NCBI GenBank assembly: GCA_003602575.1
Contig: QQRY01000021.1
Location: 1-59,903, forward strand
Direction: 5' to 3'
Length of the DNA: 59,903 bases
From: Candidatus Poseidoniales archaeon
GTDB taxonomy: Archaea; Thermoplasmatota; Poseidoniia; Poseidoniales; Poseidoniaceae
Positions 47,952 to 57,575 of this stretch are shown piece after piece (positions within the stretch are counted from its first letter, which is position 1; each line of letters starts with the position of its first letter). Position numbers and translations under genes: made by a program. Under the pieces are notes generated by a model. The model was not told the origin of the DNA. It worked only from the letters and a program-made list of their open reading frames with translations, and did no database searches.

Positions 47952-48950
47952 ATGGCACATATTGCGATTTTGGGATTAGGCAACTGGGGGACTGCGGTAG
48001 CTAGAATGTGGTTACTTGATGGCCATAATGTGAAAGGTTGGACTATCGAACAAGAAGTTTATGAGTCGATAACAATGGATCAGGTGAATAAGAAGTATTT
48101 ACCCGAACATTCAGTTGAAGGTCTTGAGGTCACAATGCATATCAATGAAGCTCTTCAAGGAGTGGAAATTGTTGTTCTTGCTGTACCTTCATCAGTCATA
48201 TTAGATGTGTTCGATGATGTATTGCCTCACTTAAGACCTGGGCACGTAATAATCGATTTAGCAAAAGGTCTCGCTCCTGGGAAGAGATTAATTTCTGAAG
48301 CGATTCATAATAAATTGAAAGAGGCAAACATGAATAATCCTCTTGCTGTTGTTACCGGACCAACTATCGCTCCTGAAGCAGCAAGCGGGGTCATGACTAC
48401 TGCTTTAGTCGCTAGTGAAGATGAATCTGTTGCCCAGAAATTGGCTAAAACTCTAACCACTCAAACCTTTATTCTCCATCCTGCCTCAGACCCTGCGGGT
48501 GCAGAATTATGGGGGGCATTCAAAAATGTCGTTGCTTTAACATGTGGATTGGTTGATGGTTTGAAAATTAATGGGACTCTTGGTGGTGATAATTTGAAAG
48601 CTGCTATTTTCATGGCTGGATTCAAAGAAGGTTGTATCCTATTGCCCCTTCTAGGGGCAAAAGCCGAGGTTGCATTTGGACCGGCCGGACTTGGAGATCT
48701 TTACGTGACAGCAACTTCACCATATGGAAGAAATAGAACCATGGGTGAGAAGTTAGGCACGGGATTAACATTAGAACAAGCATTAGAAGAAATGCACATG
48801 GTTGCTGAAGGAGTTAGAGCGGCTAGAATGTTTATTCGACGTGCAGAGGATGAAAATATCAATACTCCATTCACTAAAGCAATCAATACCTTACTCGATG
48901 GGGACATCGATGCTGAAGAGTGTTGTAGAAGAATTGTCGCCCTAAACTAG
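47952..48950 (+). CDS. gpsA: NAD(P)H-dependent glycerol-3-phosphate dehydrogenase
   Basis: GLGNWGTA, LAKG, GPTIA, GAFKNVVA, GLGDLYVT, GRN, AEG motifs. Confidence 0.9.
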   Translation: MAHIAILGLGNWGTAVARMWLLDGHNVKGWTIEQEVYESITMDQVNKKYLPEHSVEGLEVTMHINEALQGVEIVVLAVPSSVILDVFDDVLPHLRPGHVIIDLAKGLAPGKRLISEAIHNKLKEANMNNPLAVVTGPTIAPEAASGVMTTALVASEDESVAQKLAKTLTTQTFILHPASDPAGAELWGAFKNVVALTCGLVDGLKINGTLGGDNLKAAIFMAGFKEGCILLPLLGAKAEVAFGPAGLGDLYVTATSPYGRNRTMGEKLGTGLTLEQALEEMHMVAEGVRAARMFIRRAEDENINTPFTKAINTLLDGDIDAEECCRRIVALN

Positions 48951-49219: not shown

Positions 49220-50161
49220 TCATTCTTCTTCCTTTTTGGAGTACATTTCTACAGCCATAGAAGGCGGTAAAATAACACTCCACCACTTAGGTCTCTTCAC
49301 GTCTCCTTCTTCAGTTACAAAGGAGCGGATTAGCATAGAGATTAGATCTATTATCACTACGACTACAAAGACTACAATTAGTAAGGCAAATGCCTTATTG
49401 TAATCAAATGGTGGATTGATGTAATTATCGATATACATACCGATTCCTCCAGCACCTACAAGACCTAAAACCGCTCCATGTCTTACATTATACTCGAACA
49501 TGAATAATAATTGACTAAGAAGGTGATTACTAGACTCTGGAATTACTACATGGAATAATTGTTCAGAATGTGTCAAACCCATTGCCAAACCAGACTCTAA
49601 CGGCGCGTTATGAACTCCTTCCATGGCCTCATACTGTAGTTTTCCTAAGTATCCAATAGTGTACAAAGTCATGGCTAAAATACCAGGTAATGGCCCAAAA
49701 CCGAGGGCGATTGCAAATAGTAAAGCCCAAATTATACTGGGTAGACTTCGTAGTCCAGCAAGTAAAACTCTTGCAGGAATTGCAATTGGCAGTGGAGCCA
49801 TATTATTTGCTGCAAAAGAGGCAATTGGAATTGAAAAGAAAAATCCTATCAAAGTTGCAACGAATGCCATTTTTATAGTAATTACCATTCCTGTCCAAGC
49901 CTTAGAACAGAATAATTCGATATTTTCATTACATACATCTCCATTGGGTTTGTGTAATGAACCATCTGCCCAAACCTCTGCCTCTAAAACCGACCAATCT
50001 GGAGGCAAGAGGTCTTCACTGAAGAATATCTTTAACTTTTCAGGTGCACCTTCTATTTGACCCCAATCATCGACTAAATCATCTAGAGATAACCAAGCTA
50101 GAAGTATTAAGAAAATACCAACAAAAAATAATTTCTTATTGATTGGAATCACCTTCCTCAA
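49220..50161 (-). CDS. PhnE-family ABC transporter permease
   Basis: RSLPSIIWAL, GKLQYEAME, FEYNVRHGAVLGLVGAGGIG. Confidence 0.88.
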   Translation of the reverse strand: MRKVIPINKKLFFVGIFLILLAWLSLDDLVDDWGQIEGAPEKLKIFFSEDLLPPDWSVLEAEVWADGSLHKPNGDVCNENIELFCSKAWTGMVITIKMAFVATLIGFFFSIPIASFAANNMAPLPIAIPARVLLAGLRSLPSIIWALLFAIALGFGPLPGILAMTLYTIGYLGKLQYEAMEGVHNAPLESGLAMGLTHSEQLFHVVIPESSNHLLSQLLFMFEYNVRHGAVLGLVGAGGIGMYIDNYINPPFDYNKAFALLIVVFVVVVIIDLISMLIRSFVTEEGDVKRPKWWSVILPPSMAVEMYSKKEEE

Positions 50162-50813
50162 TCAAATTATCATCAATGATTCGCCAAATTCTATCAGCGA
50201 GCTCAATCGCTCTTTCTTCATGGTGTTCGATTAAGATTAAGGTCGCTCCAATTTCGTCAACGATCTCTTTAGTAGCGGCAATTATAGAATTTACATTCTC
50301 TTTATCGAGTTCTCCTAAGAATTCATCTGCAAGGATGAGTTTAGGCCTTTGGACAAGTGTTCTTGCAATAGCAACACGTCTCTGTTGACCTCCAGAAAGA
50401 ATTCTAACCGGTTCATCTGCAATATCTAGAATTTTTAATGCCCTCATGGCATTATCCATATCTTGTTTGAGTTTCTTATCTAGTGGAAACCAGAATGGAA
50501 ACCACCTAGATCTTCTTGTTCTTGCCCCTAATGCGACATTACTTCGTACTGTAGAGTGCCTTACTAAACCAAGTCTCTGGGGTATGTAACCAATTCCACC
50601 TCTTTTGGGATAGTTATGATATATCTCCCCAGATAGAGGTCGAATTAAACCTGCTATAGTCCTCATCAAAGTAGTCTTTCCAATTCCAGATGAACCCAAA
50701 ATTGCAATCGTATCTCCCGGATAAATGGTTTTGTTAATATCTGATACCAATGGTTTGTCATAGCCAACAGATAGACCTCTAAGAGTTACACTCTCAGGGT
50801 CTATCTGCTGCAT
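50136..50813 (-). CDS. PhnC-family ABC transporter ATPase
   Basis: GSSGIGKTT, LSGGQQRRVAIAR, ILADE; start refined to MQQID after a GGTGGTGAG RBS. Confidence 0.88.
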   Translation of the reverse strand: MQQIDPESVTLRGLSVGYDKPLVSDINKTIYPGDTIAILGSSGIGKTTLMRTIAGLIRPLSGEIYHNYPKRGGIGYIPQRLGLVRHSTVRSNVALGARTRRSRWFPFWFPLDKKLKQDMDNAMRALKILDIADEPVRILSGGQQRRVAIARTLVQRPKLILADEFLGELDKENVNSIIAATKEIVDEIGATLILIEHHEERAIELADRIWRIIDDNLIEEGDSNQ

Positions 50814-50901
50814 CTCACCACCACCTCGAGAGGGGGATTTTTCAACTACCAAGTAACCATCACCATGTGCCCGTAGAATTATTCTATTTAGAGCAAGTAG
50901 G

Positions 50902-53109
50902 TCATTCTTGTTCAGAAGTTTCAGCATCTGTGATGCCGTACTTATCTGATGAATGGTAATATTCTGAAAGACCTGGCACAGATGCTAGAAGATCAGAATA
51001 ACTTGCCAAATGATTTTGGCTATTTCCTGCTTTCAATCCATAACCCTTCGAAGTAACAGAAGATAGAATCTCTCCACCACATTGGTTCATAGGAATATCA
51101 GCAACTTGGTGAGTCACTGTATTGTAACATCCTGTGTAATTTTGACCTCCCATAGGATAATTGTCAACCCACATTTCATCGTTCCAACTCAACATTGCAT
51201 TCAAAATTGCATTACGTGTGTGGATATCTAACTTTTCAGGGTTATACATTACAGGGTGGCTTGGAGATTGTCCAAATGATGGTAGTTGGACATATTGGTC
51301 CATTGGAAGACACCAAGCTTCATTCTCAGAAGCATTATCATCGCCACAGTATTTTTCAACTGTACTGAAATCGTCTCCCTTAGCAAAAGCAACATCTCCA
51401 TATCCTTCACTCAAACACTCAATAGCACCACTATATCCCGAATATAGGGCTCCAGAATCAGGAATTGATGCTGGATTTCCATTACTTGCCGAGCCATCGA
51501 AATGGTTGTCAATAGTCGTTCTAAGTGAGTTTACATCTGTATTATCTCCTAGAGGAGTAACATATCCGTTCTTAATTAGATACCCCATTGGCATCAACAT
51601 TCCAGCAGATTTTAGCCATCCGGTGTGACAAGAGGTCTTTCCTGCCATTAATGCGAACGGATCTGTTGAGTCATCTCCATCCAAGTGAGCATTAGCGATA
51701 TCTGAACCGTTTAGAACCCATGCTGAAGCATTGTAGTGTGTCGCTCCTTCTGCGGTTGTGGTTTCAACAGCTAATACAGAAAGTCCGTATTGTTTCCATC
51801 CAATCCATGCTGGTCCACCTTCCATGAATCCAATATCTGCATTTCCAAATCTCAATGCTTGGATAATCATTCCTTCGGATGAAACATCATACAAGTTAAC
51901 ATTCACTCCAAGGTCTGATGCAAGTCTATCAGCCATTCCTTGAGCATCAGCATTTGCACTTGCGTCATCTGCTAAATAATATGCAACATTAATCGTAGAT
52001 TTTACTGCAGCAGTTTCTGAACCATTTGTGAAAGCATTTCCATACTTACTGGAAATACCTGGGATGTTTTGAAGCGCTGCTCCATATGTTCCCAAATGTG
52101 TTTCAGCATCGGTAACAATCATAGCATCAGTACCTAGAACATTGTTTAAAATTTCTAGGCCATTGGTATCATCTTTCATTGCTACAAGTGCATCTTGAAT
52201 CAAGGTCACTTTGTCTGCTGCGAGGACATCACTGTTATACATGACAGAGTGACTAGGAGATGATCCAAATTTCGGTAAAGCAACATATTGACTCATATCC
52301 AAACACCATGCTTGATTCAAGGTTGCATCCTCATTATCACAATATGAAGCAACTGTCGAATCCTTAGCAAACGCTACATCTCCATATCCAGTACTCAAAC
52401 ATTCAACGGCTCCACTATATCCTGAGTACAATGCGCCACTTTCTGGAATAGATGCTGGATTTCCAGCACCTGTACTTCCATCAAAGTAGTAATTAATTGT
52501 AGTTCGTAAAGTTTCAGTATCAGACATGTCTCCTTGAACATTGACATATCCGTTACCAATCATGTAACCCATAGGCATCAACATTCCTGCTGATTTTAGC
52601 CATCCAGTGTGACAAGATGTTTTTCCAGCAAGTAGAGTGAAAGGATCGGTTGAATCATCATTGTCTAGATGAGCTGTTGCCATTTCTGAATCTGCTTTGA
52701 CCCAAGCATGTGCATCATAATAGGCACGCCCATCGCTTTTTGTGTCAGCAGCCATAACGTCTAGATCATATGCATTCCAGCCAACCCAAGCAGGTCCACC
52801 ATCAATATTCATTGCAATATCTGCGTTTCCAAATCTAAGTGCTTCCATAGCGATTCCTGAACTTCCAACATCATATAATGAAACATCCATATCTAACTTA
52901 TCACAGAGATAATCTGCAATCTGTTGAGGATTTGATAGATCTGTATCTGTCAAATCTTCTTTTATTTCATATGCTATTTTTAATTCATCTCCGCTACAAT
53001 TATCTGTAGAAGATGTAGAATCATCATCACTACCAATACAACCTGCCATAGCAGTAGTCACCATTAGTAGTATCATTAGGCTCGATTTCGCAATTTTTGT
53101 TTCCAACAT
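50902..53109 (-). CDS. bilobed transferrin-like (PhnD-fold) substrate-binding lipoprotein
   Basis: Lipobox AMAGC; two lobes about 328 aa apart, each with GKTSCHTGWLKSAG, YSGYSGAxECL..GYGDVAFAK and SPSH; ATG 53109 follows a GAGTGA RBS. Confidence 0.85.
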   Translation of the reverse strand: MLETKIAKSSLMILLMVTTAMAGCIGSDDDSTSSTDNCSGDELKIAYEIKEDLTDTDLSNPQQIADYLCDKLDMDVSLYDVGSSGIAMEALRFGNADIAMNIDGGPAWVGWNAYDLDVMAADTKSDGRAYYDAHAWVKADSEMATAHLDNDDSTDPFTLLAGKTSCHTGWLKSAGMLMPMGYMIGNGYVNVQGDMSDTETLRTTINYYFDGSTGAGNPASIPESGALYSGYSGAVECLSTGYGDVAFAKDSTVASYCDNEDATLNQAWCLDMSQYVALPKFGSSPSHSVMYNSDVLAADKVTLIQDALVAMKDDTNGLEILNNVLGTDAMIVTDAETHLGTYGAALQNIPGISSKYGNAFTNGSETAAVKSTINVAYYLADDASANADAQGMADRLASDLGVNVNLYDVSSEGMIIQALRFGNADIGFMEGGPAWIGWKQYGLSVLAVETTTAEGATHYNASAWVLNGSDIANAHLDGDDSTDPFALMAGKTSCHTGWLKSAGMLMPMGYLIKNGYVTPLGDNTDVNSLRTTIDNHFDGSASNGNPASIPDSGALYSGYSGAIECLSEGYGDVAFAKGDDFSTVEKYCGDDNASENEAWCLPMDQYVQLPSFGQSPSHPVMYNPEKLDIHTRNAILNAMLSWNDEMWVDNYPMGGQNYTGCYNTVTHQVADIPMNQCGGEILSSVTSKGYGLKAGNSQNHLASYSDLLASVPGLSEYYHSSDKYGITDAETSEQE

Positions 53110-53120
53110 TTTTATCACTC

Positions 53121-53138
53121 TTTTAGGGAGGCCGAAAA
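53121..53138. promoter_or_regulatory. palindromic operator A, TTTTAGG-N4-CCGAAAA (DtxR/SirR-like)
   Basis: Inverted repeat with one mismatch, at the expected transcription start of the transferrin-like gene. Confidence 0.6.
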
Positions 53139-53155
53139 GTAACTCATATATATTA

Positions 53156-53171
53156 TTTAGGTTTCCCTAAA
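53156..53171. promoter_or_regulatory. palindromic operator B, TTTAGG-TTTC-CCTAAA (DtxR/SirR-like)
   Basis: Perfect 6-4-6 inverted repeat directly upstream of a TATA-like TAATATATATG on the minus strand. Confidence 0.7.
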
Positions 53172-53190
53172 AAAGCAAAATAGTCGACTT

Positions 53191-54111
53191 TCACTCTACT
53201 TTGACTTGACTTATGCCTTTTACAATCTGATTTAGATACCGAACTTCTATTTCTAAATTACAAGCCGAACTACAAATATCATGACCGTTTTCATAAACAG
53301 AAATTATCTCATCATGATTCCAAACGCTTTCATTATCTGATGAGATAAAACAGTGCGCTTCCTTTGTCAAATTTTCATTACTTATTGCTGAAATATCGAT
53401 ATCTCCAATAGAGGAAATTATGAAAGAAATAAACCTTGAATCATCATCGGAATTATAGTAACTTAGAAATTGAATCTTGTAAAATATGTTACTATCATTA
53501 ACGATGTAAGTAATTTCCTTTGGGATTACTCGATGAACTGAAATATCATAATCATACCATTCTAACCTAGAATCTGAGGTTTCGGTAGGTTCTCCTTCAG
53601 GAATTGAATCCACGTTTTGAAACTCTTCCTCAGTAGTATATCCCAAAACATTCTCCCCAAGTATGATGTCTGTCTTTGAAAAACTAATACTATAATTACT
53701 ATCATTGGTCTGTTGCATATCTGAGAAACTTAAGAGAATAAAATCATCTGAATCTGAATTAACTTCAATGGTAAAGCTATTTCCGTCTGAATTAAGTTTG
53801 GTTTGAATTAGCCCATTATGGGAAATGCTAGAGGTTAGCCCACTCTTTGTACAATCATAGCGATTATTGTCACCTATGAGAGTCATTGTTAATTTAGACC
53901 AGTCAAGATTATCTTCACCAGAAGAAAAGGAAAATTGCAATAATGGATCATTGGATTGGTTTGAAACATTACTATTGTAATCCTCTACCAGAATTTCATT
54001 CTCTGTAGTTAATTCTGCTGAATAAGATGTAACAAGAAAATACCATCCCACTGCCCCGATTACTAAAACAATTAGAACTCCGGCCAAAAGTCGCTTTAAC
54101 CAATTTGACAT
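53191..54111 (-). CDS. membrane-anchored protein with HmuY-like heme-binding domain
   Basis: N-terminal TM; EWYDYDISVHRVIPKEITYIV...YKIQFLSYY...SRFISF resembles the HmuY C-terminal motif; start refined to MSNWL. Confidence 0.65.
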   Translation of the reverse strand: MSNWLKRLLAGVLIVLVIGAVGWYFLVTSYSAELTTENEILVEDYNSNVSNQSNDPLLQFSFSSGEDNLDWSKLTMTLIGDNNRYDCTKSGLTSSISHNGLIQTKLNSDGNSFTIEVNSDSDDFILLSFSDMQQTNDSNYSISFSKTDIILGENVLGYTTEEEFQNVDSIPEGEPTETSDSRLEWYDYDISVHRVIPKEITYIVNDSNIFYKIQFLSYYNSDDDSRFISFIISSIGDIDISAISNENLTKEAHCFISSDNESVWNHDEIISVYENGHDICSSACNLEIEVRYLNQIVKGISQVKVE

Positions 54112-54140
54112 GGTGTTCGCTCCCTTCAATCAAGTATAAA

Positions 54141-54156
54141 CTTTGGTTGCCCTAAA
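54141..54156. promoter_or_regulatory. palindromic operator C (minus strand TTTAGG-GCAA-CCAAAG) abutting a TTTATA box
   Basis: Same motif and position relative to the TATA element as operator B; TATA about 24 nt upstream of ATG 54111. Confidence 0.6.
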
Positions 54157-54160
54157 CTAT

Positions 54161-54682
54161 TCAATTAGTTTCAATACTGCGTGTGTTTACAAAGTAACGA
54201 ACATATATCATACCTAAGAAACCAATGAAAAGGATTGTAATTGAACCCATAGCATACATATCAGCGCCATTCCAAGAATCTATATCAAATAATGTTCCAT
54301 CACCTTTTGTTGAAACATACCAAACCAGATATGCTGAAATTGTTGACATTATCCCAACCATTGCCATAATTATGTACTTTACATGTTTTGGCAATGATTT
54401 TCCTGTTGCATAATAATCGAACATCTTCTTTCCAAAGAATTTGTTCGAGAGAGACCATCTAAACAATTTTTCATTTGATAAGGAAAACAAAAAGGCAGCC
54501 GGAACTGCCCAAGATACTGTTGGCCAACCTGGAACGAATATTCCAACAAGTGCAAAAAAAGTAAATAGAGAACCGAGCGATTGGTAAATGATACTCTTTA
54601 CCCTGTTACTAGAAATACAATACTTTTCGACTACTGAATCAATAGTCAAAAGTCGTTCGTCCATGAGCGTCGGTTTAACCAT
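54161..54682 (-). CDS. YbaN/DUF454 family membrane protein
   Basis: LVGIFVPGWPT..AAFLF..S..KLFRWSLSNKFFG..G.SLP..VK pattern. Confidence 0.75.
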   Translation of the reverse strand: MVKPTLMDERLLTIDSVVEKYCISSNRVKSIIYQSLGSLFTFFALVGIFVPGWPTVSWAVPAAFLFSLSNEKLFRWSLSNKFFGKKMFDYYATGKSLPKHVKYIIMAMVGIMSTISAYLVWYVSTKGDGTLFDIDSWNGADMYAMGSITILFIGFLGMIYVRYFVNTRSIETN

Positions 54683-54723: not shown

Positions 54724-55635
54724 TTATTTTGAGGAAATCCACTGTGAGACAAGGCTTTCTGCAAAACGATCTTGTTGAATACCTGTGTGGCTTATCGGCC
54801 TCACTACGACCAACATGTCAATTTCTCCACCCCATGTTCCGGATGCCGCACAAAGTACTTCTCCGACCTTAAATCCGTCAACATCAGAACTTAGGGTTAA
54901 ACTTCTTAATTCATAGAGGCGAATATCCAACTTATACTCCGAACCTGAATCAGAATCCACATATTTGTGTTTGTCAGCTGAAATTATTTCTATCAATTTC
55001 ATTTCATCTGCATCCAAATTTAAAACAATCTGTTCATCTAATAATTCAACTGCCTGTTTTAATCTAGACTGTTCCATATTGAAAATATCAGCTAGGTCAA
55101 GAGAAGTTGAGGCTGAGCCAAATTGGCTAAACTGGTGAGGTATTCGTAATTTCATAGATTGAACCACTTCCACATTTAATCCACCATCAGAGGGTAACAT
55201 AACCCATGTATATTGACTTCCTGAAGGATAAAATGGAGCATTTGGATTTTCTTTGAGTAATGGCTCACCCCATTCATCGGGGGATATTGGTTGTGAAGCC
55301 GGAATCAAACCACCGGCAAATAAGATCATACATAGCGACATCAAAACATAGATTCTCTTCCTACTGAACTCTTTCCATGAATATCTACCGGCTGGGCTCA
55401 ACAAAGAAATTAACAGAACTATTGGAAGTATAATGAAAAGGCCCCAAGGAACTATCCACAATAAAACAATACATATCAATAATGTTTCAATTCCATATTC
55501 TCCAATAATATCATTTCTATCAAAATCTCGACCTTCAGATTCTGTTTTCTTCTTTTGATACAGTGTAAGTCCTATAATTAGAGCAAAAAGCGTGAGTGTT
55601 GTAATTACCCCACCAAACATTTCGACCCTCGCCAC
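54724..55635 (-). CDS. hypothetical membrane protein with soluble C-terminal domain
   Basis: 303-aa ORF with about 4 N-terminal TM segments. Confidence 0.55.
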   Translation of the reverse strand: MARVEMFGGVITTLTLFALIIGLTLYQKKKTESEGRDFDRNDIIGEYGIETLLICIVLLWIVPWGLFIILPIVLLISLLSPAGRYSWKEFSRKRIYVLMSLCMILFAGGLIPASQPISPDEWGEPLLKENPNAPFYPSGSQYTWVMLPSDGGLNVEVVQSMKLRIPHQFSQFGSASTSLDLADIFNMEQSRLKQAVELLDEQIVLNLDADEMKLIEIISADKHKYVDSDSGSEYKLDIRLYELRSLTLSSDVDGFKVGEVLCAASGTWGGEIDMLVVVRPISHTGIQQDRFAESLVSQWISSK

Positions 55636-55719: not shown

Positions 55720-56748
55720 ATGTCGGAAGTAGTGCTAGAGATGAAGGATGCCGCTTTTAGGCATCTGATTTCTTCACGGAGTTTGACTAACCCCTTTGGG
55801 AAAAAACAAGGCTCAGGCATATTTTCAATCAATCTTAAAATTAGAAAAGGACAGATATTAGGCCTTGTTGGACCTAATGGCGCTGGAAAGACAACTTTGA
55901 TGAGAATTCTTGCTGGTATTTTTCCGATTCAGAAAGGCAAGATAATGTATAGAGATTCCGAGATGAAGGAGTTTTCAGCAATCTCCGACTTTGAACTACG
56001 TTCTGTGGTCGGCCATATGCCTGAACAAGTCCGTTGGCAAGGCAAGGTCTCTGTAAAAAGAACATTAGAAGACATTGCTGAAATGCGCGGAGTGTCTTAT
56101 CGAGTCGATGGAATTCTCATGATGGTTGGTTTGTCTGAAATGAAAGATACGCCACTCGACCAACTTAGCCAAGGAATGAGGCAGCGATTATCTCTAGCTA
56201 CTGCATTGCTTGGTTCGCCTAAAATTCTATTGCTTGATGAACCTTTTAATGGATTAGATCCTGTTGCAATTAGAGCATTTGAGAAACTATTACACAAACT
56301 TACAGAAAAGGGTGTTTCGATAATTATTTCTTCCCATAGAGTCGCTGGAATGGTACACATCGTTGACCGATTGGCGCTAATTCATCGAGGGCAGTTGCTA
56401 ATCGAGGGAACACTGAAGGACATCGAAAATGAATATGAATTAGACAACAGAATCGAAATTCAAGGGTCCGGAAAAATTCCTGAATTTGAAAGCATTTTAA
56501 CTGATTCAGCATCTCTTTTAGATACTCAAACTTCAGAAGATGGGTGGTTAGCAGTCATAAGAAATCAAGATAGAAATTTATTAAAAAAATTAATCGAATC
56601 AAATGCAGAAATAACCACTTGGAAATCTAAAGATACTGATATTGTTGAGATGCTATGTGCAGCGACTGGACAAAACTTAGATGAAATCGGATTTGGAGTA
56701 ATTTCCTCAACAATGATTCCTTACAAGAGCCGGGGTGAAGAAGAATGA
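55720..56748 (+). CDS. ABC-2 type exporter ATP-binding protein
   Basis: GPNGAGKTT, LSQGMRQR, LLLDEPFNGLDP, ISSH. Confidence 0.9.
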   Translation: MSEVVLEMKDAAFRHLISSRSLTNPFGKKQGSGIFSINLKIRKGQILGLVGPNGAGKTTLMRILAGIFPIQKGKIMYRDSEMKEFSAISDFELRSVVGHMPEQVRWQGKVSVKRTLEDIAEMRGVSYRVDGILMMVGLSEMKDTPLDQLSQGMRQRLSLATALLGSPKILLLDEPFNGLDPVAIRAFEKLLHKLTEKGVSIIISSHRVAGMVHIVDRLALIHRGQLLIEGTLKDIENEYELDNRIEIQGSGKIPEFESILTDSASLLDTQTSEDGWLAVIRNQDRNLLKKLIESNAEITTWKSKDTDIVEMLCAATGQNLDEIGFGVISSTMIPYKSRGEEE

Positions 56749-57575
56749 ATGACTTCGAGAAATTAAGAAGCGTCATTTTGAGGCAAATTTCAAGCAGGCT
56801 ATTCTCTGTAAGAATGGCAATAATGTTGCCGATATTGATTCTTTTTATTCCTGGGATGGCTTGGGGGTTTTCAGACCCAGACATCATGCTACCTGGGGGG
56901 ATTACTCCCTCTTCAGCGACCGAAGTGATGTTCTACACAAGTTTGGGTATTGTATTTGGAGCAACTATGTGCGCAGTTCTGTTATCTTTTGATGGCGTAA
57001 GCAGAGACAGGGCAAGTGGAGTTTTAGAAATAAAACTCTCTCAACCAATGGCGCGTTCTCATCAATCAATAGCTCTCGTCATGGGACATTGGTTGGCGAT
57101 ATTAATTCCAATTTGGATTCTATGGGGCATCTCATTTTTGATAGTTAAGTATCGCATCGGTGATTGGCCGAGTTTTGCCGACTTATTGGCATCATTTATC
57201 TCGGTTGCATTAATACTACTTTGGTATGTCCTTTTCTCACTTATAGCCTCTTCACACGCTAGGGAGCAGGGAACGTCGATAGCATTCGGAGTTGGAGTTT
57301 GGTTCCTGTTCACTTTCCTTTGGGCTCTAGTAACTACCATGGTAGCATTTGCATCTGGTGTATCAATTGGAGAAGAGAATGACCCTAAATGGATAGACTT
57401 AGAGGGTGTTTTAGATCTATTTTCCCCAAATGGAGTATTCCATCATTTACTTGAAACACGTTTGGATGATGTTGATAGGGGAGTTTCTCCAATTACTACA
57501 TGGATTGTAGCAATCATTTGGTCGGTTTTACCTTGGTATTGGTTCACATCTAGGATGAAGACAATACAGCCATAA
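56745..57575 (+). CDS. ABC-2 type (NosY-like) permease
   Basis: SFDGVSRDRASGVLEIKLSQPMAR, about 6 TM; ATGA overlap with the ATPase gene. Confidence 0.82.
   Translation: MNDFEKLRSVILRQISSRLFSVRMAIMLPILILFIPGMAWGFSDPDIMLPGGITPSSATEVMFYTSLGIVFGATMCAVLLSFDGVSRDRASGVLEIKLSQPMARSHQSIALVMGHWLAILIPIWILWGISFLIVKYRIGDWPSFADLLASFISVALILLWYVLFSLIASSHAREQGTSIAFGVGVWFLFTFLWALVTTMVAFASGVSIGEENDPKWIDLEGVLDLFSPNGVFHHLLETRLDDVDRGVSPITTWIVAIIWSVLPWYWFTSRMKTIQP

Follow-up and report, generated by a model that had tools for sequence, protein, structure and literature searches.

A transferrin-family binding protein in a predicted ferric-iron ABC importer of marine Poseidoniales archaea

Archaea of Marine Group II (MGII) are among the most abundant heterotrophs of the surface ocean, and the way in which they acquire iron is unsettled. 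The locus described here lies on a stretch of 59,903 nucleotides (referred to as the window; contig QQRY01000021.1, positions 1 to 59,903) from a MGII archaeon of the Poseidoniaceae. Five ORFs (open reading frames) occupy positions 49220 to 54682 on the minus strand; their common orientation had been part of the original prediction and was confirmed. They encode a DUF454 protein, an HmuY-like protein, a two-lobed binding protein, and an ATPase and a permease of the ATP-binding cassette (ABC) type. The locus probably encodes an ABC importer that takes up ferric iron with high affinity, whose binding protein is of the transferrin family and whose expression is under an iron-type operator. A transferrin-like binding protein stands here behind an iron-type control switch, and import of ferric iron is therefore the most likely function.

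The binding protein is encoded at 50902..53118 on the minus strand (738 residues from GTG 53118, with ATG 53109 as the likelier start). A Pfam scan gave matches to two families only, PF00405 (Transferrin) with 107.7 bits in two stretches against a cut-off of 20.3, and PF12974 (Phosphonate-bd) with 92.2 bits and an E-value of 4e-26; SBP_bac_6 and SBP_bac_8, the families of FbpA-type proteins, were not matched. Both PhnD models were failed, the equivalog TIGR03431 with 34.5 bits where 261.1 are required, and TIGR01098 with 65.3 bits where 112.05 are required. Searching the sequences of the Protein Data Bank (PDB) with phmmer gave 94 distinct matches at E ≤ 0.01, and the best 60 of the 94 were all transferrin-family chains, headed by bovine lactoferrin (7.6e-23). 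A profile made of 14 archaeal lobes gave 100 matches in the same database, the best 60 of which again belonged to the transferrin family, with melanotransferrin as best match (5.1e-51). By sequence, the binding protein is a member of the transferrin family and not a PhnD.

Lobe 1 extends over residues 36–365 and lobe 2 over residues 366–738, approximately, and the identity between them is 50.6% over 330 residues. The transferrin ligands announced in the original prediction are present in both lobes. In lobe 1 the set consists of D106, Y134, Y234 and H290 with T171 and K175 at the anion site; in lobe 2 it consists of E433, Y462, Y562 and H621 with T499 and K503. Counted through the alignment with lactoferrin, the ligand columns correspond to the lactoferrin ligands Asp60/395, Tyr92, Tyr192 and His253, while Thr117 corresponds to T171/T499 and Arg121 to K175/K503. 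Leaving the acid of lobe 2 apart, the twelve ligand and anion-site columns are kept in 118–119 of 119 two-lobed relatives; that acid is Asp in 89 of the 119 and Glu in 30, as in the window protein. The same columns are kept in 45 of 45 one-lobed relatives. At the anion site the Thr is invariant, and Lys takes the place of the transferrin Arg in 118–119 of the 119. This Lys is shared by 18 of the 23 labelled eukaryotic lobes in the lobe alignment. At the sequence level, C169 and C240 align to the disulfide pair Cys115–Cys198 of lactoferrin, and C169 is invariant. Since a lipobox-like MAGC ends at Cys27 near the N-terminus, the protein is probably lipid-anchored at the cell surface.

The aligned columns were also compared with E. 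coli PhnD (annotated K-12 record). PhnD holds G, Y, T, S-T-S, a gap and D in them, so that only two of the six positions of ligands and anion site agree and four do not: its Gly stands in the Asp column, the gap in the second Tyr column and D205 in the His column. Conversely, the columns of the S127-T128-S129 loop, which presumably contacts the phosphonate in E. coli PhnD, hold K-S-A, and that of D205, presumably in charge of the amine, holds His; this is true of both lobes of the window protein and of all 45 one-lobed relatives.

The gene of the binding protein overlaps by 26 nt with that of the PhnC-like ATPase (50136..50927, minus strand), which in turn overlaps by 26 nt with that of the PhnE-type permease (49220..50161, minus strand; 313 residues from TTG). 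The overlap and the common orientation with ATPase and permease genes argue for a role in transport. The ATPase contains ABC_tran (PF00005, E 6.7e-30), and TIGR02315 (PhnC) was the best of 188 NCBIfam models, yet with 128.5 bits it stays below the cut-off of 266.1. The permease matches PF00528 and passes the PhnE equivalog TIGR01097 with 219.7 bits for a cut-off of 216.7.

Synteny was followed in 71 related loci, all from Poseidoniales or unclassified marine archaeal metagenome-assembled genomes except L010, recorded as a Pseudobdellovibrionaceae bacterium. The order binding protein, PhnC, PhnE is kept wherever the DNA is long enough (PhnC next in 68 loci and PhnE in 64), the remainder stopping at a contig edge. 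Named homologues of the binding protein (n=766) are attributed to Poseidoniaceae, Thalassarchaeaceae or 'Euryarchaeota archaeon'. Those of Poseidoniaceae are mostly two-lobed (about 730 residues), and the matches in Thalassarchaeaceae mostly have one lobe (324–367 residues). Profile searches in 61 sampled Poseidoniales genomes detected the lobe in 48 (E ≤ 1e-20) and the HmuY-like protein in 36 (E ≤ 1e-3), of which 20 full-length. The synteny expected in the original prediction thus holds order-wide for the three transport genes and not for the other two: the HmuY-like gene adjoins the transporter in 14 of 71 loci (four times upstream together with DUF454, ten times downstream of PhnE), and DUF454 in 4 of 71, which are exactly the four with the upstream HmuY-like gene. 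In locus L002 the binding protein is 97% identical, yet neither gene is there. Because of this sporadic occurrence, the five genes are not one fixed unit.

Two copies of a palindrome flank the TATA-like box TAATATATATG of the binding-protein gene (53145..53155, minus strand; read from the sequence). Operator O1, TTTAGGGAAACCTAAA, lies directly upstream of the box at 53156..53171, and operator O2, TTTCGGCCTCCCTAAA, with one mismatch, lies between the box and the start codon at 53122..53137. The consensus of the operator is TTTAGG-N4-CCTAAA. Scanned as T[TA]AGG-N4-CCT[AT]A within 130 nt of the start, it is kept at 52 of 59 orthologous binding-protein promoters of Poseidoniales, often in two copies, and a second copy at the place of O2 is common in relatives. 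The claim of palindromes shared by the promoters of the locus could be maintained in part. Besides the two at the binding-protein gene, a degenerate copy with two mismatches, TTTAGGGCAACCAAAG (minus strand), is found upstream of the HmuY-like gene at 54141..54156, followed by TTTATA; in this arrangement the HmuY-like gene thus has a promoter to itself. Its score of 12.5 bits is in the chance range genome-wide, and it recurs with one or two mismatches in five of five genomes with the same arrangement. The sequence upstream of the DUF454 gene contained no operator, which is where the claim fails. When the HmuY-like gene is located downstream of PhnE, its upstream sequence shows no evident operator-like site or separate promoter.

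The distribution of the operator was analysed in the own genome of the window (1.97 Mb, 87% complete, an absence in it being no proof) and in the 61 Poseidoniales genomes. The looser form TTAGG-N4-CCTAA was found three times in the own genome, for 2.3 expected from composition, and all three sites are at gene starts: one at the binding-protein gene, one in the gap that separates sufC-sufB from a NifU-like gene, and one at hemA. Over the 61 genomes, the sums of our table give 106 exact sites of the 16-mer in 49 genomes, versus 23 sites for a reversed control pattern. None of 23 operator sites, in 17 loci checked for ORFs, was inside an ORF longer than 600 nt; for comparison, ORFs of at least 150 residues cover about 89% of the own genome.

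Targets were classified for 66 sites in 49 loci, 30 of them taken from the search and 19 picked among non-transporter sites, and the proportions are biased by this choice. The binding-protein gene was the only target of 32 sites. Nine sites were located beside a Fea1-family gene, including four which were also beside a binding-protein gene. Further targets were 4Fe-4S ferredoxin (4), ferrochelatase (2), hemA (2), sufC/nifU (2), a CarboxypepD_reg-domain protein (3), an M28 peptidase (2), and type I phosphodiesterase, RmuC, PhnE and PhnC (1 each); six sites were unlabelled. Fea1 refers to PF07692, 'low iron-inducible periplasmic protein' (E 1e-30 for the protein of L116). Each of the Poseidoniales Fea1-family proteins at L116:1564-2805, L156:226-1500, L159:3-1499 and L161:3969-5204 is preceded by the same operator. 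As the operator precedes genes of Fea1, ferredoxin, ferrochelatase, hemA and sufC, it appears to define an iron regulon.

A candidate for the regulator is a DtxR-type protein, present in the own genome as a single full copy (L082:1030-1695), with 55.1 bits for PF01325, 64.6 bits for PF02742 and a weak FeoA match. A DtxR-family regulator was found in 60 of the 61 Poseidoniales genomes. The arms TTAGG and CCTAA are reminiscent of the DtxR/IdeR box. In several genomes of the coded family f3, probably Thalassarchaeaceae, a second and short DtxR-family gene (157–175 residues) was observed about 1 kb from sufC (G051:C28, G023:C1, G027:C1 and G047:C46).

In relatives, the transporter also has iron genes as neighbours. 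In a genome of the same genus, the homologous locus L162 (G040:C5:22500-37500) contains a 12-kb 'iron island' with operators at both ends, located between the homologues of a conserved 303-residue membrane protein and of GpsA, which border the transporter in many loci (see below). Its order is operator, Fea1, a Y_Y_Y/CarboxypepD_reg protein, Peripla_BP_2, FecCD, ATPase, flavodoxin, a CREG/DUF2470 protein, PhnC and PhnE; a GSDH gene and a one-lobed transferrin-like binding protein with its own operator are convergent to it. In genome G051, a Fea1 gene is directly upstream of binding protein, PhnC and PhnE, behind two operators. In the own genome, neither FeoB_C nor Fea1 was found. Its only SBP_bac_6/SfuA (thiamine-type) binding protein is encoded elsewhere, beside a protein weakly similar to hydroxymethylpyrimidine kinase.

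From these elements the following mechanism is proposed. The surface-anchored two-lobed lipoprotein would bind Fe3+ in both lobes, through two Tyr, one His and an acid that is Asp in lobe 1 and Glu in lobe 2. The Thr, the Lys and the N-terminus of a helix would hold a synergistic anion, which is probably carbonate. Iron would then be handed to the PhnE-type permease, powered by the PhnC-like ATPase. The two operators bracketing the TATA box would govern transcription, and the single DtxR-family metalloregulator probably binds them, so that the genes would be switched on when iron is scarce. The HmuY-like protein may be a membrane-anchored accessory paired with the Cys/Tyr/His insert of lobe 2, to which it may dock or with which it may exchange metal, and the DUF454 protein may be a small membrane companion of it in this sub-lineage. 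A PhnC/PhnE-type translocator for Fe3+ had already been suggested in the original prediction, and all the in-silico tests (ligands, ranking in PDB and Pfam, regulon, iron neighbourhoods, lack of phosphonate catabolism) point in the same direction.

The HmuY-like protein (53191..54129, minus strand) has 312 residues from TTG, homologues starting at ATG 54111 (306 residues). It gave no Pfam or NCBIfam match at E ≤ 0.01. When PF14064 (HmuY) was searched at E ≤ 10, it was matched by 26 of 28 family members, the best with 1.2e-4 and the window protein with 0.017, the latter at 15.7 bits where the cut-off is 27. Some of the relatives are labelled 'HmuY family protein' by NCBI. An AlphaFold2 model obtained with 28 sequences (predicted local distance difference test score 88.4) consists of an N-terminal helix (residues 6–35) followed by an all-beta body. 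The top eight PDB matches of this model in Foldseek were all HmuY-family chains (BfrB, BVU_2192, BF2707, HmuY and Tfo), with probability 1.00, E-values of 7e-6 to 1.4e-4 and target TM (template modelling) scores of 0.44–0.59. A profile of the family gave no match among PDB sequences. The HmuY-like motif of the original prediction is thus borne out at the level of the fold, the sequence similarity being weak and below the Pfam cut-off. Among the invariant residues of the family are W191, Y192, Y194, H199, R200, Y224, Y225, D229 and four Cys.

The presence of the HmuY-like gene follows an insert in the binding protein. This lobe-2 insert, at about residues 643–681 (EMWVDNYPMGGQNYTGCYNTVTHQVAD...C; 51076..51192, minus strand), has no counterpart in lobe 1. 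Relatives that possess it carry it in lobe 2 or, if one-lobed, in their only lobe; it has about 40 residues and the motif EMWV.NY.M.G...TGCY...TH, which occurs once in the own genome. Of 19 insert-bearing loci, 14 have an adjacent HmuY-like gene, versus 0 of 35 loci that lack the insert (Fisher p 4e-9, computed on kin which are not independent). In 8 of 10 other genomes (L163-L165, L168-L172), paralogues of the HmuY-like protein with 32–34% identity are encoded directly behind a multi-fasciclin and plastocyanin-like protein. These fasciclin partners have 517–814 residues with two to four fasciclin domains and a plastocyanin/azurin domain, which Pfam confirmed in six of the eight (L169 and L170 being unscanned), and they carry the lobe-2 insert too (TGCYN.VTH). 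Co-occurrence with the insert, together with the location of the paralogues behind insert-bearing fasciclin-cupredoxin proteins, leads us to propose that the HmuY-like protein is the partner of the insert module.

The DUF454 (YbaN-like) small membrane protein is encoded at 54161..54682 on the minus strand (PF04304, E 2.4e-16). In L003, L004, L014 and L015 its gene and the HmuY-like gene form a pair, as they do in L167 away from the transporter; DUF454 travels with the HmuY-like gene in close kin only. The link of DUF454 with iron made in the original prediction has some support in print. A passage of PMC7970244 reports its induction by iron restriction in Avibacterium, and a passage of bioRxiv 10.1101/2024.09.26.615229 its co-occurrence with loci of the type XI secretion system (T11SS), TbpB, heme oxygenase and hemophores.

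Scavenging of heme by the locus, as an additional or even main function with the HmuY-like protein as hemophore and DUF454 as its membrane partner, could be considered on these grounds. The fold matches the heme-binding HmuY and its kin, the NCBI name of relatives and the published contexts of DUF454 agree with it, and the locus L162 combines a DUF2470/CREG protein with a FecCD set. However, the PF14064 score is below cut-off, the profile has no match in PDB sequences and the family has one invariant His only (H199), where P. gingivalis HmuY uses two. The search of the own genome revealed no FecCD-type heme/siderophore permease over cut-off; its sole FecCD-like match is an ABC-3 permease (30.1 bits for FecCD vs 143.2 for ABC-3, once the fragment is cut out). 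The same genome possesses hemA for its own heme synthesis. Furthermore, the paralogues stand behind fasciclin-cupredoxin proteins and not behind heme genes, and the gene follows the lobe-2 insert. The parallel heme scavenging of the original prediction, which is based on likeness of fold, is not upheld in its original form, and a heme function of the locus appears unlikely.

The main rival to import of ferric iron is that the annotated role is right, i.e. that the locus encodes a PhnCDE importer of phosphonate, phosphite or phosphate, whose binding protein merely comes from common stock with transferrin. In its favour are the permease score above the equivalog cut-off, PhnC as best model of the ATPase, the PF12974 match, the name 'phosphate/phosphonate transport system substrate-binding protein' given to relatives, and a passage of PMC6336850 that lists transport of phosphonates for the core genome of MGII. 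A PstS-type PBP_like_2 protein was not found in the own genome, and two phosphoesterase genes are located beside operators. Against it stand the PhnD equivalog score, the K-S-A and His in the columns of the PhnD loop and D205, and the extra Tyr ligand with no counterpart in PhnD. The own genome contains neither the carbon-phosphorus lyase PhnJ nor the phosphonatase PhnX, and PhnW gave only matches far below cut-off; the absence of such genes from the window, already part of the original prediction, could thus be extended to the 87%-complete genome. Moreover, most of the labelled operator targets are iron genes, and phosphate can be served by a PHO4/PitA carrier (C17:20887-22149) with no operator of at least 12 bits nearby. 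Altogether, a phosphorus importer appears quite unlikely.

Another hard metal or metal-anion species (Mn3+, Al3+, Ti4+ or a metal-carbonate) as substrate, or a protein acting mainly as extracellular store or buffer of iron, is very unlikely: transferrin sites made of Tyr, Tyr, His and Asp bind several trivalent and tetravalent ions, DtxR-family regulators sense Mn too and Lys replaces Arg at the anion site, yet in every locus of sufficient length the ATPase and permease genes share the orientation of the binding-protein gene and overlap with it, and the partners in the regulon are iron users or iron-stress genes (Fea1, flavodoxin, ferredoxin, heme and Fe-S synthesis).

Several observations nevertheless weigh against import of ferric iron. 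The function is a prediction from sequence. The permease scores above the threshold of the PhnE equivalog, and PhnE-type permeases are not known to us to move Fe3+. At the anion site, Lys occupies the position of Arg, although the same Lys is found in ichthyosporean transferrin lobes. Since no PstS was found in the own genome, a phosphorus-scavenging role would fill a gap. Two phosphoesterases are flanked by the operator, a GDPD divergent from Fea1 and the type I phosphodiesterase. The proportions of operator targets are not unbiased, as 19 loci were chosen among non-transporter sites. The sufC operator is present in only 4 of 30 Poseidoniaceae loci, those of the own genome and of its three closest species, so that part of the regulon is lineage-specific. 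Finally, the iron response of the operator and the binding of DtxR are deduced from the targets and from a likeness to the DtxR/IdeR box.

The distribution of the transferrin family was examined beyond the order. The Pfam Transferrin model was matched in 35 of 201 sampled Thermoplasmatota genomes and in 0 of 14 controls. These 35 include 19 of 21 Poseidoniaceae, 9 of 14 Thalassarchaeaceae and a few others, the two names being given by inference to the coded families f1 and f3. Among 1.84 billion cluster representatives, the lobe profile detected 1170 (E ≤ 1e-3). A look-up of 30 of these identified nine eukaryotic ones: six from ichthyosporeans, one eukprot entry, one from the green alga Bryopsis and the melanotransferrin of Trichoplax; several of the nine have three to seven lobes. 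Four are archaeal by name (a MGII euryarchaeote, Thermoplasmatota, Heimdallarchaeota and Nitrosopumilus) and one bears a JGI functional name only. The one-lobed relatives named Heimdallarchaeota, Nitrosopumilus and Thermoplasmatota are P0260, P0248 and P0190, P0248 being the one from Nitrosopumilus. MGII lobes have a signature D-Y-C-T-K-Y-C-H in common with most lobes of ichthyosporeans. In the row of Heimdallarchaeota and in several unlabelled ones, which may include P0248, D-Y-T-Y-H is present and the Cys pair and the Lys are missing.

A quick maximum-likelihood tree was computed from 114 lobes. The selection was limited to domains covering at least 200 profile positions (118 of 307), from which eight near-duplicates among the cluster members were removed; it was completed by eight rows from archaea and by E. 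coli PhnD as sole and long outgroup, and the search was short. All 23 labelled eukaryotic lobes fell into one clade of 69 rows, and the MGII lobes formed a separate clade of 28, both with a support of 99 in the Shimodaira–Hasegawa-like approximate likelihood ratio test (SH-aLRT). Nitrosopumilus-like, Heimdallarchaeota and other Thermoplasmatota rows branched below both clades. As both lobes of the window protein are inside the MGII clade, its duplication took place independently of those in eukaryotes. Given the single long outgroup and the brief search, the tree suggests, and does not establish, an archaeal origin of the eukaryotic transferrins.

This allows a broader and tentative reading, which we regard as possible and somewhat doubtful. 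Transferrin would be at root an archaeal ABC binding protein. Poseidoniales and further marine archaea (Thermoplasmatota, Nitrosopumilus-like and Heimdallarchaeota) would still take up carbonate-bound Fe3+ via one- or two-lobed transferrins with PhnC/PhnE, the eukaryotic transferrins would have branched from within, and an order-wide DtxR-type iron regulon would include archaeal homologues of Fea1. In that case, what is listed as 'phosphonate transporter' in the core genome of MGII would be the main iron gate, and one would expect its activity to be dependent on the carbonate of seawater, as is the case in diatoms.

A few features around the locus complete the picture. Directly upstream, at 54724..55635 on the minus strand, is the gene of the conserved 303-residue membrane protein mentioned for L162, which gave no Pfam or NCBIfam match and usually stands next to the binding-protein gene on its upstream side, as seen in many loci. 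It is followed by a divergent ABC-2 exporter pair (ATPase and ABC2_membrane_2; 55720-57575, plus strand), also conserved as upstream neighbours in many Poseidoniales loci. On the other side, GpsA, a bacterial-type NAD-dependent glycerol-3-phosphate dehydrogenase (47952-48950, plus strand; PF01210/PF07479/PF20618), is a conserved downstream neighbour across Poseidoniales. Next to it, a xylose-isomerase-like TIM-barrel protein (PF01261; 46683-47855, plus strand) has a long C-terminal tail rich in Lys, Glu and Asp.

Contigs from marine RNA libraries of three studies match the window with 92–99% likeness over 51077-53119, 53209-53983 and 54183-54453, i.e. over parts of the binding-protein, HmuY-like and DUF454 genes. 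They are a weak hint of transcription, whose level, strand and iron response are not readable from contigs and where carry-over of DNA is possible. Two of the contig ends, at 53102 and 53119, are near the start codon and weakly hint at the 5' end of the binding-protein transcript.

The locus had been called undescribed in the original prediction. This cannot be upheld, since the system is already counted as phosphonate transport: a passage of PMC6336850 includes 'the transport of phosphonates' in the core functions of MGII. Fragmentary iron ABC genes are mentioned for MGII in a passage of PMC6741140. No archaeal or MGII transferrin-type iron transporter was found described in the literature, a search which left the supplements of the MGII genome papers uncovered, and the tree of McQuaid et al. 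(2018) may hold such sequences.

If import of ferric iron is correct, this gene set shifts from phosphorus to iron metabolism in metagenome and metatranscriptome surveys, and carbonate-dependent iron uptake is predicted in archaea. The protein would also link the PhnD type of binding protein to the transferrins of eukaryotes, as a living intermediate that is open to direct expression and assay. The operator offers a ready set of iron-stress markers for MGII (binding protein, Fea1, flavodoxin, ferredoxin, heme and Fe-S genes). In addition, the HmuY-like protein and the short insert module, also present in fasciclin-cupredoxin surface proteins, point to a possible and so far undescribed partnership of surface proteins.

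Compared with known systems, the binding protein shares with the eukaryotic transferrins (serotransferrin, lactoferrin, ovotransferrin and melanotransferrin) the family, the Asp/Tyr/Tyr/His ligands, the Thr and helix of the anion site, the disulfide and the two lobes. The eukaryotic proteins are soluble or receptor-endocytosed carriers, whereas the archaeal protein carries a lipobox-like anchor and is encoded in an operon with ATPase and permease. Its two lobes originate from a separate duplication, and lobe 2 of the window protein has Glu instead of Asp and the extra insert. With PhnCDE of E. coli, the locus shares a permease of the PhnE equivalog, an ATPase nearest to PhnC and the compact order of binding protein, ATPase and permease. 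It differs by the transferrin residues at the phosphonate positions of PhnD, and C-P lyase genes were found neither beside the locus nor elsewhere in the genome.

FbpABC, SfuABC and FutABC, with FbpA as the 'bacterial transferrin', are alike in the proposed job and use other families of binding protein and permease. The logic of the FbpA type consists of a Tyr-rich Fe3+ site, a synergistic anion, an ABC permease and an iron regulator. The phytotransferrins ISIP2a/Fea1 of diatoms and green algae (PF07692) are similarly marine and perform a carbonate-linked, high-affinity capture of Fe3+ at the surface, as is proposed for the window protein. They belong to another Pfam family, and uptake in algae proceeds by endocytosis, versus an ABC translocator in the archaeon. 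The HmuY hemophores of Bacteroidota (PF14064; PDB 3h8t, 8b6a, 3u22 and 6eu8) have the all-beta fold in common with the HmuY-like protein, which is likewise found in an iron context. The latter is archaeal, is preceded by an N-terminal helix anchor, has about 130 extra residues, scores below the Pfam cut-off and co-varies with the insert of the binding protein.

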